Positions 3,525 through 25,487 of a stretch of 38,798 nt of DNA are shown one piece after another. A model generated the notes under the pieces. It was not told the origin of the DNA. It made no database searches and saw only the letters and a list, made by a program, of their open reading frames with translations. Numbering within the stretch: the stretch's first letter is position 1; every line of letters starts with the position of its first letter. The DNA is from a virus, in IMG/VR virus record IMGVR_UViG_3300045988_016398, positions 1 to 38,798 of that record; one strand, given 5' to 3'. The translations under genes and the position numbers were made by a program.

Positions 3525-3857
3525 ATGTTAGAATTCCCAAACATAAGATATCCGATATACCCTATCGATGAAACAACGCCTGATGTAAGTCGTAAGGCTC
3601 AGGTAGAAAACATGACGATGTTAACGCATCGTAAGACTACGAAAGCGTTACGATCGTATTCAGTAAATTACAAGATACCGACTTCGGAATATATCAAGCT
3701 AAGGAATTTCTTTGACCAGGTTAATACTGCAGAGATATTCCTTTGGACACATCCGGAGACACGAGCGAAGGTAAGAGTAAGGTTTGCGGACCAACTGCAC
3801 TTCTCCGCTAGTGATTATGGTATATGGAATGGTTCTATTCAATTACAGGAGGCTTAG
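3525..3857 (+). CDS. Minor tail protein (lambda gpM-like by position and size)
   Basis: A 110-aa ORF immediately follows the tape measure, matching the lambda H-M-L-K-I-J order. No motif was recognised. Confidence 0.5.
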   Translation: MLEFPNIRYPIYPIDETTPDVSRKAQVENMTMLTHRKTTKALRSYSVNYKIPTSEYIKLRNFFDQVNTAEIFLWTHPETRAKVRVRFADQLHFSASDYGIWNGSIQLQEA

Positions 3858-4466
3858 ATGTTAACGTTATCGACTGCATCAATCATCGAAAAGAATAAGA
3901 TATCCTCCACTGGAGCATGGGTAATGGCTATTGAACTTCACCATCCGGAAGGGAATATCCTCCTTGTGAATAACACCGAGGACTTAACCTTAGCGGGTAA
4001 GCAGTATACGGCGTTCCCATTCAAGCTAGAGGATATTAACGAGGACACTAAGCAGATGCCTAACGTTAAACTCTCCGTAGCGAACGTGACCGGTACGATC
4101 CAACGGTTAGTAGAAAAGAATAAAGGCCTCACAGATTGTGAGGTCAATATTCGTATCTTCAATACTAACCTACCGGACGTTATTGAACTTGAAGAAACGT
4201 TTATCATTAATGCGTCCCAATCTAAAGCAGACTGGGTAGTGTTCACGTTAGGCACAGACTTTTCATTCTCTCGTAGGTTCCCACCTGTTAGGGTAATGAA
4301 AGACTACTGTCCTTTCAAATTTAAGTCTGTAGAGTGCGGTTACAAAGGTTACGCACAATCATGCAACAAAACTCTAAAACGCTGTCGTGAGTTAAATAAC
4401 AGCGTTAGATTTGGCGGTGAGCCAACGATACCACAAGGGGGCTTATATGCGTCTAACTCTAAATAA
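3858..4466 (+). CDS. Minor tail protein (lambda gpL-like) with a C-terminal Cys cluster
   Basis: Synteny supports the call. A CAGGAGG RBS precedes the ATG. The C-terminal motif is C-x8-C-x8-C-x6-C (YCPFKFKSVECGYKGYAQSCNKTLKRC), reminiscent of the Fe-S cluster ligands of gpL. Confidence 0.6.
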   Translation: MLTLSTASIIEKNKISSTGAWVMAIELHHPEGNILLVNNTEDLTLAGKQYTAFPFKLEDINEDTKQMPNVKLSVANVTGTIQRLVEKNKGLTDCEVNIRIFNTNLPDVIELEETFIINASQSKADWVVFTLGTDFSFSRRFPPVRVMKDYCPFKFKSVECGYKGYAQSCNKTLKRCRELNNSVRFGGEPTIPQGGLYASNSK

Positions 4467-11416: not shown

Positions 11417-11747
11417 GAAAGTATTTAAATCTGTTAGGGTGGCCAACATCCACCCTACAGGCGTATTAGCGACGAGGGCATTAGTCCTCGTCATGCTAGT
11501 ACCTATTATGTTAGTAGTCATCGAATATGTAATGGCGTTCGCCACAGGGTATGTATCCGATGAAACAGGGAAATTAATTAGCACAGGTATTAACATTATT
11601 GACCATATCTTTATACCAAGCGTACTAACTGCCCTTGTAGGGTTCTTAGCACTTTGGATAGATAAGGACGGTAACGGTGTACCTGATAAGCTAGAAGGGA
11701 GTAACAATGAAAGTATGTATCAATCCGGGTCACGACGTGAACCTTGA
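11382..11747 (+). CDS. Holin (two predicted TM segments)
   Basis: A GGGAGGAG RBS precedes the start. Hydrophobic segments are ALVLVMLVPIMLVVIEYVMAFA and IFIPSVLTALVGFLALWI, with a charged C-terminus. The gene lies immediately upstream of, and overlaps, the amidase gene. Confidence 0.65.
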   Translation: MIIPPRLMDSAKKVFKSVRVANIHPTGVLATRALVLVMLVPIMLVVIEYVMAFATGYVSDETGKLISTGINIIDHIFIPSVLTALVGFLALWIDKDGNGVPDKLEGSNNESMYQSGSRREP

Positions 11748-12225
11748 TAGTGGTGCAGTTAACCCTCGCACTGGACGTCGTGAATGTGACGTCGCACTCG
11801 AAGCCGGTGAACTTCTCCAAACATACCTAAATCAAGCCGGATGTCAAACGGTGCTTGTACAAGACGATGACCTTGGTTACGTCTGCCATGTATCTGATGA
11901 TTTTGATGCGGATATCTTTGTATCCTTACACTGTAACGCATTCAATACTCAGGCACGTGGTACTGAAACACTATATAAGTCTTTTAATGGTCAACGATTG
12001 GCTAATGATATTCAAAGCCAAATCATCCGCAGCATTAACACCGTAGACCGTGGCGTTAAGAAACGTGATGACCTTTGGGTACTCAACGGAACTAACGCAG
12101 TAGCAGTTCTCGTAGAAATGGCATTCATCGATAATGACGATGATTTAGAAATGCTTAACAATGACCTTGATACGATTGTCCGTGCTATCGCTAGGGGGAT
12201 AACAGACTACACAGGAGGCGTATAA
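11707..12225 (+). CDS. Endolysin, N-acetylmuramoyl-L-alanine amidase (Amidase_3 type)
   Basis: The pattern MKVCINPGHD...DIFVSLHCNAF...GTETLY...AVLVEMAFIDN is typical of zinc amidases of the CwlD/Amidase_3 type. There is no signal peptide. Confidence 0.85.
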   Translation: MKVCINPGHDVNLDSGAVNPRTGRRECDVALEAGELLQTYLNQAGCQTVLVQDDDLGYVCHVSDDFDADIFVSLHCNAFNTQARGTETLYKSFNGQRLANDIQSQIIRSINTVDRGVKKRDDLWVLNGTNAVAVLVEMAFIDNDDDLEMLNNDLDTIVRAIARGITDYTGGV

Positions 12226-12707
12226 TGTATGAGAAAATCAAGACTACACTTACTAGCTATCCTAAGCTTTATTATGTTATCGGTGCTATTGTGCTCCTAT
12301 CCGTCTTTTGCCTCTGGTACATCTTCTATCAGCCAAGTGGAGCAGACTATCAGCGTACCCTTAACACAGTGGAACGAATTGAAAGCCAACAACGAGAAAG
12401 CATTAAGATTAATCGAGACATCCAGTCTGCCATTGGCCGAAGCTCAAAGCTTGGTCATGAAGCAAAGGGAAGAATTGAACGAAGCACACAATACAATCAC
12501 AAAATTGGAGAACGAATTACAAACAGCCAAGGTAGACTTAATGAAGCAAGAAGTTACCTTGAACGAAATGCAGAACTCTTTAGACGTATTGAAGAACAAG
12601 GTCGAGAACGACAAGAAAACTATCAAACGTCTACGGATGCAACGCAACCTATCCCAGGTGATAGGGGCGGGAGCGATAATCGGAATATCGATTCGACGAT
12701 GAAATAG
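12225..12707 (+). CDS. Spanin-like protein, frame A: N-terminal TM anchor and a charged helical periplasmic domain (i-spanin-like); may be real or a shadow of frame B
   Basis: The ATG overlaps the amidase stop (TAATG), and the same RBS lies 6 nt upstream. The TM segment is LYYVIGAIVLLSVFCLWYIFY. Nine of 17 Arg codons are CGA, which looks like an off-frame echo of AAC-GAA in frame B. Confidence 0.35.
   Translation: MYEKIKTTLTSYPKLYYVIGAIVLLSVFCLWYIFYQPSGADYQRTLNTVERIESQQRESIKINRDIQSAIGRSSKLGHEAKGRIERSTQYNHKIGERITNSQGRLNEARSYLERNAELFRRIEEQGRERQENYQTSTDATQPIPGDRGGSDNRNIDSTMK
12229..12702 (+). CDS. Spanin-like protein, frame B: signal peptide (possible lipobox Cys22), Leu-heptad coiled coil and C-terminal TM segment
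   Basis: An AGGAGG RBS lies 10 nt upstream. The N-terminus is MRKSRLHLLAILSFIMLSVLLCSYPSFA|SG. A long heptad coiled coil follows (ELNEAHNTITKLENELQTAKVDLMKQEVTLNEMQNSLDVLKNKVEN). The C-terminus is VIGAGAIIGISIRR. Codon usage looks more natural than in frame A. Confidence 0.5.
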   Translation: MRKSRLHLLAILSFIMLSVLLCSYPSFASGTSSISQVEQTISVPLTQWNELKANNEKALRLIETSSLPLAEAQSLVMKQREELNEAHNTITKLENELQTAKVDLMKQEVTLNEMQNSLDVLKNKVENDKKTIKRLRMQRNLSQVIGAGAIIGISIRR

Positions 12708-21323: not shown

Positions 21324-21788
21324 ATGAGTAGCGCATTTGAACAATTAGGAACAGAAGCATTAGGTTTTAACTCCGAAGTAGTAGCTGAGGTAAAGGAATT
21401 TACATTACTTCCTGCAGGTGTATATCCATTCGTTATTACTAATGTAGAAAAAGGTTATACAGATGTAGCCACTGCTAAAATTCCGGCTAACACACCTAAA
21501 GCAGTTATCACATTAGAGGCCGATGGTGGCGAACAAGGTAAAAATAAAGTCACTGAAAGATTGTACTGGATTCCCTCCATGATGTGGAAAGTATCTAATG
21601 TATTCATTGCTACTGGTTTAGCTAAACCAGGTGAAAAGTTTATGGCAAATCCTGACTTATTAATTGGCAAAACTGGTCAATTTGAACTGAGCCACAGACT
21701 GTATGAAAAGAATGACGGTACACAAGGTACTGCCAACGAAATCAAGAAGTTTATTCAACCTAAAGACGATAGCTTCGGAGGCTTCTAA
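21324..21788 (+). CDS. DUF669-like protein (putative phage ssDNA-binding partner of Sak4)
   Basis: The call rests on position after the Sak4-like gene, the 154-aa size, and an acidic/aromatic C-terminal tail (KDDSFGGF) like an SSB tip. Confidence 0.55.
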   Translation: MSSAFEQLGTEALGFNSEVVAEVKEFTLLPAGVYPFVITNVEKGYTDVATAKIPANTPKAVITLEADGGEQGKNKVTERLYWIPSMMWKVSNVFIATGLAKPGEKFMANPDLLIGKTGQFELSHRLYEKNDGTQGTANEIKKFIQPKDDSFGGF

Positions 21789-23365
21789 TGGAATTAAGAC
21801 CCTATCAGACAGAGGCAGTTAATGCCGTATGGTCAGAGTGGGAGAAAGGTAATAGACGTACCCTGTTGGTCCTTCCAACGGGGTGCGGTTAAGGCAAGAC
21901 TATATGTTTTGCCAAAATTGCTGAGGAAGCAGTCAGAAGAGGTAAGCGTGTATTAATCCTGGCACACCGTGAAGAACTACTTCAACAGGCTTCAGATAAA
22001 ATCATGCAAGCCTCTGGACTGACCACAGCTATGGAGAAGGCTGAGCAGTCATGCATAGGGAAATGGGACCGCATCATAGTCGGTTCTGTACAAACCCTAT
22101 GCCGTGACAGCCGGCTAGCTCTATTTAGCAAATCCTACTTTGACACGATCATTATAGATGAAGCACATCATGCTTTATCAAGTAGCTATCAAGCTATATT
22201 AAACTACTTTGACACAGCCGATATACTCGGCGTTACTGCTACACCAGATAGGTCAGATATGCAGAACTTAGGGAAGGTATTTGATAGCCTAGCTTATGAA
22301 TATACCCTACGTGATGCTATCAGTAGTGGCTACCTGGTGAAGATACAAGTACAAACATTACCACTACACATTGACTTTACCAATGTAAAGATTACCGCTG
22401 GTGACTTCCAAGCCGGTGATATTGGCAGAGTATTAGACCCATATTTAGAACAAATTGCAGATACATTACTTGACTATAAAGATAGAAAAATAGTGGTATT
22501 CTTACCACTTATTGAAACGAGCCAAAAGTTTTGCAAGATGCTGATTGAACGTGGATTTAATGCTGCGGAAGTTAATGGTAATAGTAAAGACCGTAACGAA
22601 ATCACAGAAGACTTCGCCAATGGCAAATACAACGTACTCTGTAACTCAATGCTACTCACTGAAGGGTGGGACTGCCCTAGTGTAGATTGCGTAATAGTAC
22701 TTAGACCGACTAAATCAAGAGCCTTATATATGCAAATGATTGGCCGTGGTACTAGGTTATGTGAAGGAAAAGACCACTTATTAGTGCTCGACTTCCTATG
22801 GCACTATGAAAAGCACTCACTCTGCAGACCGGCTCACTTAATCGCTAAGTCTGATGATGTAGCCATTAAGATGACTGAAATACTTGAAACCTCAAGCATG
22901 GGATTAGAGGAGGCAGAAGAAGAAGCTGAACGTGATGTACTAGCTGAGCGTGAAGCAGCACTTGCTAAAGAGCTTGCAGCAATGCGTAAGAAAAAAGCTA
23001 AATTAGTAGACCCATTACAGTTTGAATTCTCTATTCAAGCTGAGGATCTAACCCATTATGTACCTACATTCGGGTGGCAAGTATCAAGCATTACTGACAA
23101 GCAAAAGAAAACTATCGAGGACTTTGGACTTAATCCGGATGCTATCGAAGATGCCGGTAAAGCATCCATGCTCATTGATAGATTACACAAACGTAAAGCG
23201 GAGGGGTTATCCACTCCGAAACAAATTAGATTCTTAGAAAATAAAGGCTTTAAAAATGTTGGTACTTGGACTAATACCCAAGCCTCTAACATGATAAGCC
23301 GTATTAGTGCTAGTGGTTGGAGAATACCGAAAGGAGTTAAACCTGCAATGTACCAACCATCATAA
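21788..23365 (+). pseudogene. SF2 DEAH-box helicase interrupted by an in-frame TAA (21890-21892) inside Walker A
   Basis: ATG 21788 overlaps the upstream stop (TAATG). The translation reads MELRPYQTEAVNAVW...LLVLPTGCG*GKTICFAKIA... in a single frame. Downstream motifs are intact: IIIDEAHH, VTATPDR and QMIGRGTR. Confidence 0.8.
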
Positions 23366-23375
23366 AGGAGTGCAA

Positions 23376-25487
23376 ATGGAAGAAAGAAAGTTAGATTTAA
23401 GAGAAGTATTGGAGTTTATTGACCCAGTCGATTGCTCCTACGAAGAATGGCTAAACGTAGGCCTTGCACTTCACCATGAAGGGTATCCAATGTTTGTATG
23501 GGAAGAGTGGTCATCTAATGACGGTGAACGGTTCCATCCTGGTGAATGTGAAGCTAAGTGGAATTCATTCGGTGCTTACACTGGTAAACAAATCACAGGA
23601 GCTACTATCACTCAGATGGCTAAAGAGAACGGGTGGACGTCTAGTCGTAGTAATCAATGGGATGCAACTGCTATTCCATTCGGGACTATGGTGATGGCTA
23701 ATCCGGATCCATACAAGATTATTGATAATACCTGGGTGGAAGCCTCTGACATTGATATTCCAAAGCACTATCCTCAAGAACAACGTGTGGAGGACTTAAC
23801 AAAGTACCTCCAAGCATTGTTTGAGCCAGATGATTATGTTGGCTATGTAAATACAGTATATGTACATCAAGATAAGGACGGTACCGAGCTAAAATCTCCA
23901 ACTAAAGGTAGTTATGGACGTACACAAAATCAAATTTTAGACGCTCTGAGAGCTAATAAAAAGGTTGATGAAGCAATAGGCACACTCGATGAAGAAGCAG
24001 GAGCCTGGATACGATTTAATGCATTAGATGGTAAAGGTGTAAAGAATGATAACGTAGCATCTTTCAAATTCGCATTGATTGAGTCTGACAATATGGAACT
24101 CGGAAAGCAAAAGGCTATCCTAGAGCAATTAGAGTTACCAATCGCAGCTATGGTATATAGCGGTGGTAAAAGTATCCATGCTATCGTACATATCGATGCC
24201 AATGATTATTCTGAGTACCGTAACCGAGTAGACTTCCTATATCAAATCGTACAGAAGAATGGTTTTAAGGTTGATAAGCAAAACAAAAACCCTAGCCGGT
24301 TATCACGTATGCCTGGTGTAATGCGTGCCGGCAAACCTCAATTCTTAATCGCTACGAATATTGGTAAAGAGTCATTCAAGGAATGGGAAGAATGGATAGC
24401 TACTGTCAATGATGACTTACCTGAGCCTGAAGATTTAGAGGCACTTTGGGATAATATGCCAGAGTTAGCACCTAGCTTAATCGATGGTATCCTTCGTGAA
24501 GGTCATAAGATGCTCATTGCAGGTCCATCTAAAGCCGGTAAGTCATTCGCACTTATCCAATTATGTATCTCTATTGCAGAAGGTAGACCGTGGTTCGGGT
24601 TTGACTGCGCGCAGGGTAAAGTCCTATATGTAAATTTAGAACTTGATCGTGCGTCATGTTTACATCGATTTAAGGATGTATATGAAGCACTACACCTGGC
24701 ACCGAATAACCTAGACAAGATATCCATTTGGAACTTGCGTGGTAAGTCATTACCTATGGACCAATTAGCACCTAAGCTAATCCGTAGAGCGGAAAAGAAA
24801 GGGTACAAGGCTATTATTATTGACCCTATCTATAAGGTCATTACAGGTGACGAAAATAGTGCCGACCAAATGGCGAACTTCTGCAACCAATTTGACAAGG
24901 TATGTACTGAACTAAAATGTGCAGTCATCTATTGTCACCACCATTCTAAGGGCAATCAAACTGGTAAGCGGTCTATGGACCGTGCATCTGGTTCCGGTGT
25001 ATTCGCTCGTGACCCAGATGCCTTGATTGACTTACTAGAAATCGAAGCAGAGAACCTAGACGAAAACAAACTAGAAGGTGCTCCAGTGGATACTAGCCAA
25101 TGTACTGCCTGGAGAATGGAAGGTACGTTACGTGAATTCCCTCGCTTCAAACCTGTTGATCTATGGTTTGAATATCCAATTCATAAAGTCGATGATAGTG
25201 GCTTCTTATCGATGGCTATGTTCAAAGATGCTCAAGAAAAGGGCCTTAATAAAATGAATAAGGCAAAGCAGTCAGCTAAAGAGAAAAAGAAACAGCAATT
25301 AGTCGATGCCTTTAATATCGCTGCTGCTAAGAATGGTTTTAGTGGCCGAGCTGACATAAAAGAGGTCATGGAAATTATGCAAATATCTGAAACTACACTT
25401 AGAAGATATTTGAAAGAAATGCCAATCTTCAAAGTCGAATTGGGTGAGATTGTTTCGAATGAAAATGTTAACCTAGATAAATTTTAA
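23376..25487 (+). CDS. Bifunctional replication protein: PriCT-2-like N-terminus, AEP-type primase-polymerase core and AAA_25 (RepA/DnaB-like) helicase domain
   Basis: An AAAGGAG RBS precedes ATG 23376. Recognisable blocks are EEWLNVGLALHHEG...CEAKWNSF, then ALIESDN / SGGKSIHAIV / NPSRLSRMPG, then MLIAGPSKAGKSFALIQL...VLYVNLE. Confidence 0.75.
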   Translation: MEERKLDLREVLEFIDPVDCSYEEWLNVGLALHHEGYPMFVWEEWSSNDGERFHPGECEAKWNSFGAYTGKQITGATITQMAKENGWTSSRSNQWDATAIPFGTMVMANPDPYKIIDNTWVEASDIDIPKHYPQEQRVEDLTKYLQALFEPDDYVGYVNTVYVHQDKDGTELKSPTKGSYGRTQNQILDALRANKKVDEAIGTLDEEAGAWIRFNALDGKGVKNDNVASFKFALIESDNMELGKQKAILEQLELPIAAMVYSGGKSIHAIVHIDANDYSEYRNRVDFLYQIVQKNGFKVDKQNKNPSRLSRMPGVMRAGKPQFLIATNIGKESFKEWEEWIATVNDDLPEPEDLEALWDNMPELAPSLIDGILREGHKMLIAGPSKAGKSFALIQLCISIAEGRPWFGFDCAQGKVLYVNLELDRASCLHRFKDVYEALHLAPNNLDKISIWNLRGKSLPMDQLAPKLIRRAEKKGYKAIIIDPIYKVITGDENSADQMANFCNQFDKVCTELKCAVIYCHHHSKGNQTGKRSMDRASGSGVFARDPDALIDLLEIEAENLDENKLEGAPVDTSQCTAWRMEGTLREFPRFKPVDLWFEYPIHKVDDSGFLSMAMFKDAQEKGLNKMNKAKQSAKEKKKQQLVDAFNIAAAKNGFSGRADIKEVMEIMQISETTLRRYLKEMPIFKVELGEIVSNENVNLDKF

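Follow-up and report, generated by a model that had tools for sequence, protein, structure and literature searches.

A conserved in-frame stop codon in the Walker A motif of phage SF2 helicases, a candidate six-nucleotide translational bypass

To our knowledge, natural translational bypassing is known from very few systems, namely gene 60 of phage T4 with its homologues and a single yeast mitochondrion, besides candidates from Streptomyces phages. The gene 60 bypass and its MobA HNH cassette reportedly go back to work by Huang in 1988 and Bonocora in 2011. Pairing of the exiting mRNA was proposed as the driver of gene 60 bypassing (bioRxiv 10.1101/2024.12.09.627546), and the bypass insert protects against MobA, some lineages having retained the bypass after loss of the endonuclease (bioRxiv 10.1101/2022.08.31.505936). 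Hopping over an in-frame stop was shown with artificial constructs, in E. coli by Weiss, Dunn, Atkins & Gesteland in 1987 (as described in PMC5009743); in nature, "no occurences are known" (Atkins et al. 2016 review, PMC5009743). The reference list of PMC10732093 also cites Kane et al. (1992) for a hop of two codons, in frame, during expression of bovine placental lactogen. Here we analyse a virus record, IMG/VR IMGVR_UViG_3300045988_016398, whose whole stretch of 38,798 nucleotides (nt) we call the window. It is a complete 38.8-kb record with terminal repeats, and its superfamily 2 (SF2) helicase gene carries an in-frame TAA stop inside the Walker A motif. A programmed +6 in-frame translational bypass ('stop-hop'), helped by an mRNA hairpin, is the best explanation that we can offer for this arrangement, and a rather probable one.

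Read from ATG 21788, the gene gives MELRPYQ...TLLVLPTGCG*GKTICF..., and after the TAA the same frame (frame 0) stays open for 490 further codons to 23365, through DEAH, TATP and QMIGRGTR motifs, just as an earlier note on this DNA had described. The note had also placed two extra codons in Walker A and called for alignment with related phage helicases to define the insertion; the alignment gives exactly six extra nucleotides, containing a stop, relative to uninterrupted PTGCGKT and PTGTGKT homologues, among them ~65%-identical proteins with PTGCGKT from Streptococcus prophages and phages and from the faecal phage contig MT835638. At the site the DNA reads CCA ACG GGG TGC GGT TAA GGC AAG ACT, with GGT to AAG at 21887-21898. 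When the two sides are joined across the hop, the protein matches ResIII (4e-37), Helicase_C (1e-17) and DEAD (3e-14) in Pfam, above the curated cut-off, and helicase motifs I, II and VI are all found, motif I being canonical only with the six nucleotides skipped. Among the same-frame junctions between open reading frames (ORFs) in the window, only the helicase stop has matching flanking codons. The elements of the site are given below, where the clade is the group of stop-bearing genes closest to that of the window.

21788..23365, + strand: SF2 helicase gene (ResIII/DEAD + Helicase_C) of 525 codons with the internal TAA counted, 523 amino acids if six nucleotides are skipped
21858..21886, + strand: 5′ hairpin of 12 bp, arm GTACCCTGTTGG at 21858-69, loop TCCTT at 21870-74, arm CCAACGGGGTGC at 21875-86
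21887..21889, + strand: GGT (Gly34), proposed take-off codon, GGT in 29/29 clade members
21890..21892, + strand: in-frame TAA stop, in the A site at take-off, TAA in 29/29 clade members and TGA in lineage L064
21893..21895, + strand: GGC, proposed landing triplet, skipped as a codon, base 1 free (G/C/A) and bases 2-3 invariant in relatives
21896..21898, + strand: AAG, proposed resume codon (Walker A lysine), with AAG/AAA synonymous variation in relatives
21893..21913, + strand: 3′ hairpin of 8 bp, GGCAAGAC-TATAT-GTTTTGCC, predicted, role uncertain

In the proposed stop-hop, the ribosome would arrive with its P site on GGU (Gly34) and its A site on UAA, and there termination would compete with dissociation of peptidyl-tRNA-Gly. 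The peptidyl-tRNA would release GGU, the mRNA would slip forward by 6 nt, and the tRNA-Gly would re-pair at the next triplet (GGC in the window, NGC or GGU in relatives), with decoding resuming at AAG. Nine nucleotides would then yield one glycine, and the product would have the canonical Walker A motif PTGCGKT. As a general rule, a single tRNA-Gly with anticodon GCC reads both GGU and GGC. To judge from ribosome footprints, the mRNA exit path would at take-off enclose the 3′ arm of the 5′ hairpin (positions -1 to -12), and the loop would only just have left it; every further nucleotide of forward slip would then allow another base pair of the stem to close. Both the hop itself and this role of the hairpin are what we infer from the observations that follow.

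The site compares with the described systems as follows. Like the synthetic stop-hops and the placental lactogen hop, it has, in the window's own sequence, matched codons flanking a stop, and the proposed re-pairing 6 nt downstream would have nine nucleotides read as one amino acid and the frame kept. Those hops were low-level events in artificial constructs or under overexpression and had no stimulators, whereas the helicase site is natural, is conserved over a synonymous divergence (dS) above 1, lies in an essential catalytic motif and has a dedicated 5′ hairpin. With T4 gene 60 it shares a Gly codon, here the proposed take-off, followed directly by a stop and a 5′ mRNA stem-loop proposed to drive forward movement. 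As at mobA/gene 60, the insert lies in conserved coding DNA beside an HNH endonuclease in some lineages (L127/L306 and L307, below), and, as in some gene 60 lineages, it appears to have been retained after endonuclease loss in the window's clade. The differences are that the helicase gap is 6 nt and in frame, with no room for an A-site stem-loop, against 50 nt in gene 60; that the hairpin directly adjoins the take-off codon, where that of gene 60 is 9 nt upstream; that the host gene is an SF2 helicase, interrupted in Walker A, rather than a topoisomerase, with a different HNH family (NUMOD4+HNH_3); and that no nascent-peptide signal was identified for the helicase site.

A further parallel for the hairpin comes from 70S ribosomes, on which forward slippage at CUU-UGA is stimulated by a 12-bp hairpin that refolds beside the E site and mimics the Shine–Dalgarno (SD) element inside prfB (PMC6321510). 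In prfB, the gene of release factor 2 (RF2), as at the helicase site, a duplex ends about one codon 5′ of the P-site codon, which is followed by a stop. The prfB shift is +1, whereas the helicase site would move +6 and keep the frame, its GGU being unable to re-pair at +1, and the helicase lineages share a hairpin rather than an SD-like string. In the terminase of the Streptomyces phage phiHau3, a bypassing candidate (PMC10732093), a phage ATPase gene is likewise interrupted by a short coding gap, for which a 5′ stem-loop and an SD are the proposed stimulators; there, however, the gaps are of 10 nt and shift the frame, a rare UUA codon is the trigger and no in-frame stop is hopped. No report of the helicase stop site was found in the literature.

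The stop is conserved and old. In a protein search of viral contigs, 12 of 12 loci with at least 92% amino-acid identity carry the insert, and all 28 loci of the 81%-identical sister clade are uninterrupted, with PTGTGKT. The outcome that the earlier note had named as pointing to an artefact, uninterrupted related genomes, did not materialize among these 12 close relatives. Pattern scans of viral, metagenome and genome collections returned many further carriers, from different IMG, ENA and NCBI projects, including one contig binned in a Veillonella metagenome-assembled genome (MAG); seven other pattern hits (L049, L050, L052, L068-L071) and most metagenome hits were rejected as chance non-coding matches. 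The GenBank phage set held no near-identical phage record. To judge from the MAG contig and from the sister-clade prophages that 6 of 121 genomes of that family contain, Veillonella is the probable host. The carrier phages are common and appear to be human-associated.

Selection acts on both sides of the stop. The clade comprises 29 distinct full-length genes, each of exactly 1578 nt with exactly one internal stop, which is TAA in every one (29/29), and no further stop or frameshift lesion was found in any of them. This holds although pairwise nucleotide identity falls to 0.83 and dS rises to about 1.2-1.6; the ratio of non-synonymous to synonymous divergence (dN/dS) is 0.01-0.04, and ~0.02 within the subclade that has only CGC after the stop. 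In codons 1-34, 12 codons vary synonymously only and 3 vary in amino acid; in codons 37-71, from the stop to the ATG at 22004, 25 vary synonymously only and none changes its amino acid. The Lys and Thr codons after the site likewise vary only synonymously (AAG/AAA; ACT/ACA/ACG). Because variation is almost wholly synonymous in both segments, these substitution patterns indicate that both flanks of the stop are translated in frame 0 under strong purifying selection. To judge from its distribution, the stop is part of an old conserved insert of six bases and not damage.

The triplet after the stop does not evolve like a codon. In the 29 genes it is GGC (16), CGC (12) or AGC (1), with the variants interspersed on the gene tree, so that base 1 is free and bases 2-3 never change, the reverse of normal codon evolution. 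If decoded, it would give Gly, Arg or Ser at the position before the catalytic Lys, which is Gly in all of the more than 100 uninterrupted homologues examined; for this reason the triplet is probably not decoded. Skipping TAA-NGC restores PTGCGKT in every clade variant and PTGxGKT across the stop-bearing variants. Landing and take-off triplets match in the window (GGT/GGC), L127 (GGT/GGC), L191 (GGT/GGT) and L307 (GGT/GGC), and at two of three positions in the CGC and AGC relatives. As a separate observation, the CGC variant (equivalent to window 21886-21896) makes GTTAAC, a perfect 6-bp palindrome, and permits a 4-bp mini-stem, UGCG/CGCA, around GUUAA.

Directly before the take-off GGU ends a stable stem, in which GUACCCUGUUGG (21858-69) pairs with CCAACGGGGUGC (21875-86) around a UCCUU loop. 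The 65-nt stretch 21852-21916 folds at -35.9 kcal/mol (z = -7.4 against shuffles). The third positions of the clade's stem and site codons have a diversity of 0.013, where the gene as a whole averages 0.253 (permutation P about 1e-5), and the two loop codons rank with the most variable of the clade (0.64-0.66). The uninterrupted sister clade shows the opposite: its loop codons are invariant, and free variation (up to 0.52) is seen in its stem and Gly codons. When the base at -1 was forced to close a hairpin, stop-bearing genes of the PTGCG type gave -16 to -22.6 kcal/mol, and 84 distinct uninterrupted homologues gave -11.0 at best, with a median of about -4 kcal/mol. Across 18 distinct aligned sequences, 99.5% of the cells of the stem are paired, and four pairs show one-sided changes that keep the pair. 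The 5′ hairpin thus has the behaviour expected of a selected cis-acting mRNA stimulator specific to stop-bearing genes, and we take that to be its likely role.

Two other signals at the site were set aside. The 3′ hairpin is paired in 92.9% of cells, but it was rejected as a specific signal, as the coding of K-T-I-x-F gives uninterrupted genes comparable stems. Within the 5′ hairpin, the 3′ arm contains GGGGUG, which resembles an SD at prfB-like spacing; this string has no counterpart in the L127 and L307 lineages, and the hairpin is preferred as the common stimulator. No Rfam family matches the site.

The layout, hairpin-GGY-stop-(N)GY-AAR, recurs in four further lineages. L136 has GGT TAA CGC with a hairpin of -17.1 kcal/mol, and L064 has GGC TGA AGC with a 13-bp hairpin of -21.9 kcal/mol. 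L127 and its 91% relative L191/L306 have PTGAG*GKT, with GGT TAA GGC and GGT TAA GGT and hairpins of -11.0 and -8.2 kcal/mol, and L307/L311 have PTGGG*GKT, with GGT TAA GGC and an 11-bp hairpin of -17.7 kcal/mol, against only -0.3 to -6.5 kcal/mol in uninterrupted relatives of L307 (45-78% identity). At the proposed take-off all stop-bearing lineages have GGY; among uninterrupted genes, each of the four Gly codons occurs. Since the window, L127 and L307 helicases share only 26-32% identity, their divergence indicates that the layout is convergent in at least these three families. Outside a patch of ~250 nt that holds the hairpin and stop, L064 is 94-100% identical to the uninterrupted L200-202, and the patch looks like a gene-conversion tract. 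An origin of the insert by tandem duplication of GGN-AAR followed by AAA>TAA fits L191 (GGT TAA GGT AAA); elsewhere it would take several steps.

In two of these families the insert lies next to a homing-endonuclease gene. L306 and L307 have a NUMOD4+HNH_3 gene directly upstream of the stop-bearing helicase, their intact HNH proteins being 44% identical, and L127 has the same upstream gene (633-1046) with an internal stop (…KKGY*KVYL…). Among 325 loci examined, an adjacent HNH gene of this family occurs only in stop-bearing L127, L306 and L307. When uninterrupted relatives are aligned, the HNH gene proves to be an insertion; in L306 it directly follows a duplicate of the helicase's first codons, and homology picks up again exactly where the new helicase starts.

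Several further features were observed around these genes. The L127 endonuclease looks degraded, and the 6-nt insert and hairpin persist there. Before the HNH gene, L127 and L306 both have a remnant 'IMIELRNYQ', similar to a duplicated helicase 5′ end. Just upstream of that gene in L306, an ORF at 3573-4154 with a T5orf172/MUG113 domain (GIY-YIG-like, of homing-endonuclease type) fills a stretch of ~750 nt that is absent from the uninterrupted L192, so that two selfish-nuclease genes are stacked before the interrupted helicase. L321 has an HNH-like ORF (344-688) with 50% identity to the HNH of L306, some ~800 nt upstream of a PTGGGKT helicase that is uninterrupted; this may be a member of that nuclease family at a different insertion point, or else a donor without the insert.

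The window itself contains no HNH_3 anywhere, and the neighbours of its helicase are ordinary replication and recombination genes with no HNH among them. For this reason its clade looks like an orphan derivative, with the insert but not the nuclease, rather than a full mobA/gene 60-like member. The earlier suggestion that the insert is the footprint of an excised element gains from its adjoining an HNH gene in two other helicase families, but it does not hold as stated: the insert looks maintained, not like an excision scar, and the window is without HNH. In the evolutionary sequence that we propose, 6-nt inserts of this class would have been placed in conserved-motif DNA together with a homing endonuclease; in the Veillonella-type phage clade the endonuclease would have gone, leaving an orphan insert that must still be bypassed. 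By analogy, immunity to the nuclease may be the function of the insert, and the candidate reasons for its retention are nuclease immunity, dosage control or the want of an easy way back. A fuller scenario, which we put forward tentatively as possible, is that NUMOD4-HNH endonucleases target the Walker A DNA of SF2 helicases and spread with a 6-nt 'stop + Gly' insert, that this insert is hopped mainly by means of the refolding hairpin, with a first-base landing mismatch tolerated, and that the window's clade has kept it long after losing the nuclease, possibly for immunity.

Several other explanations of the stop were weighed. Reassignment of the code is ruled out by TAA terminating 17 of 35 long ORFs, which makes it the commonest ordinary terminator of the phage, and +1 or other frameshift routes by the downstream frame being frame 0 and by GGU being unable to re-pair at +1. 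Programmed readthrough, whereby UAA would be decoded by a near-cognate tRNA and Walker A left two residues longer (PTGCG-X-G-KT), is compatible with translation of both flanks in frame 0, and the product of the window's GGC variant would still hold G-x-G-K-T. In the CGC and AGC genes, however, which evolve at a dN/dS of ~0.02, the residue before Lys would be Arg or Ser and not the invariant Gly, and a triplet free at base 1 and fixed at bases 2-3 is unlike a decoded codon. Readthrough stimulators typically lie 3′ of the stop, whereas the conserved one here lies 5′ and abuts the P-site codon; moreover, the stop differs between lineages (TAA or TGA), and the window has no tRNA genes and so no phage-borne suppressor tRNA. 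We consider readthrough unlikely, and of the earlier idea that the stop is read through or bypassed it is bypass that fits better. Removal of the six nucleotides before translation, through a DNA-level deletion in part of the population or hairpin-guided RNA processing, would suit the fact that every variant regains G|GC AAG once GTTAAN is taken out behind the first G of its Gly codon, and the hairpin adjoins the site. Yet the unbiased protein search returned no uninterrupted allele among the 12 close relatives, a deletion allele would be expected to sweep, the microhomology is only 2 nt, and we know of no mechanism in bacteria for excising 6 nt from RNA; this route is improbable.

Explanations in which the stop is not passed at all fare worse against the selection data. 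A functional product could come from restart downstream, at M72 or a non-AUG codon, or from two polypeptides, and the first in-frame ATG after the stop lies at 22004. But codons 37-71, upstream of that ATG, are those in which every change is silent, no start codon is conserved after the stop (codon 39 varies ATA/ATC), the P-loop Lys and Thr are conserved with synonymous changes, and a helicase split inside the P-loop is implausible; we regard this possibility as very improbable, and the restart at M22004 mentioned earlier is refuted. That the gene is a recently inactivated pseudogene, tolerated as an AAA_25 primase-helicase suffices, draws on the second replicative-type helicase/primase gene at 23307-25487. 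Against it, the stop is common to 29 distinct sequences that differ by a dS of up to ~1.5 with dN/dS of 0.01-0.04 (~0.03), all of the same length and without any other lesion; fresh inactivation is contradicted by these data and hardly credible. An assembly or sequencing artefact, for which nothing but the oddity of the site speaks, has next to no probability: the insert recurs in many independent assemblies, dozens of contigs from different IMG, ENA and NCBI projects plus one MAG, with linked polymorphism around it, so this suggestion of the earlier note can be dropped.

The stop-hop reading has points against it as well. The CGC and AGC landing triplets pair with the tRNA-Gly anticodon at only two of three positions, and the 3′ hairpin could explain the invariant 'GC' instead. 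No double compensatory changes were found in the 5′ stem in the 18-sequence alignment, so the case for the hairpin rests on constraint and on specificity to stop-bearing genes rather than on covariation. The L127/L191 hairpin is short (-8 to -11 kcal/mol), partly inherent to C-A-P-T-G-A coding, and overlaps the top of the uninterrupted range; at take-off it would lie mostly inside the ribosome, so that one geometric model may not fit all lineages. The PTGCG-type lineages (the window's clade, L136 and L064) may share the cassette by descent or recombination, which would leave about three independent origins. Finally, termination may dominate over the hop.

Three further observations concern other parts of the window. 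Synonymous diversity is very low at helicase codons 1-20 (21788-21850) in the stop-bearing clade and the uninterrupted sister clade alike, so that the stop does not account for it; possible sources are the translation-initiation region, coupling to the upstream gene (TAATG overlap, 21786-21790) or a recombination boundary. The ORF at 23307-25487 (PriCT_2 + AAA_25 primase-helicase) has a listed GTG start that overlaps the end of the SF2 helicase by 59 nt, and its true start may lie further downstream of 23307. At 12225-12707 and 12229-12702, 3′ of 11707-12225, two ORFs of 160 and 157 amino acids overlap almost fully in different + strand frames; this might be a frameshift region of the tail-chaperone type, or chance.

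If the stop-hop is real, it would be the first natural in-frame stop-hop and the smallest natural bypass cassette. Bypassing itself is already known; new here, on the genomic evidence, would be its reduction to six nucleotides, in frame and driven by a hairpin. Such a site would provide a compact (~65 nt), tractable natural example with a simple readout, a canonical P-loop made or not, in which take-off codon, stop and landing triplet already differ among natural variants, and whose hairpin stimulator has independent biochemical precedent. It would also mean that stop-bearing genes, annotated as truncated or broken helicases, are functional replication genes missed by pipelines. The endonuclease linkage in the sister cases supports the idea that homing endonucleases and bypass inserts may co-evolve at the most conserved ATPase motifs of phages.
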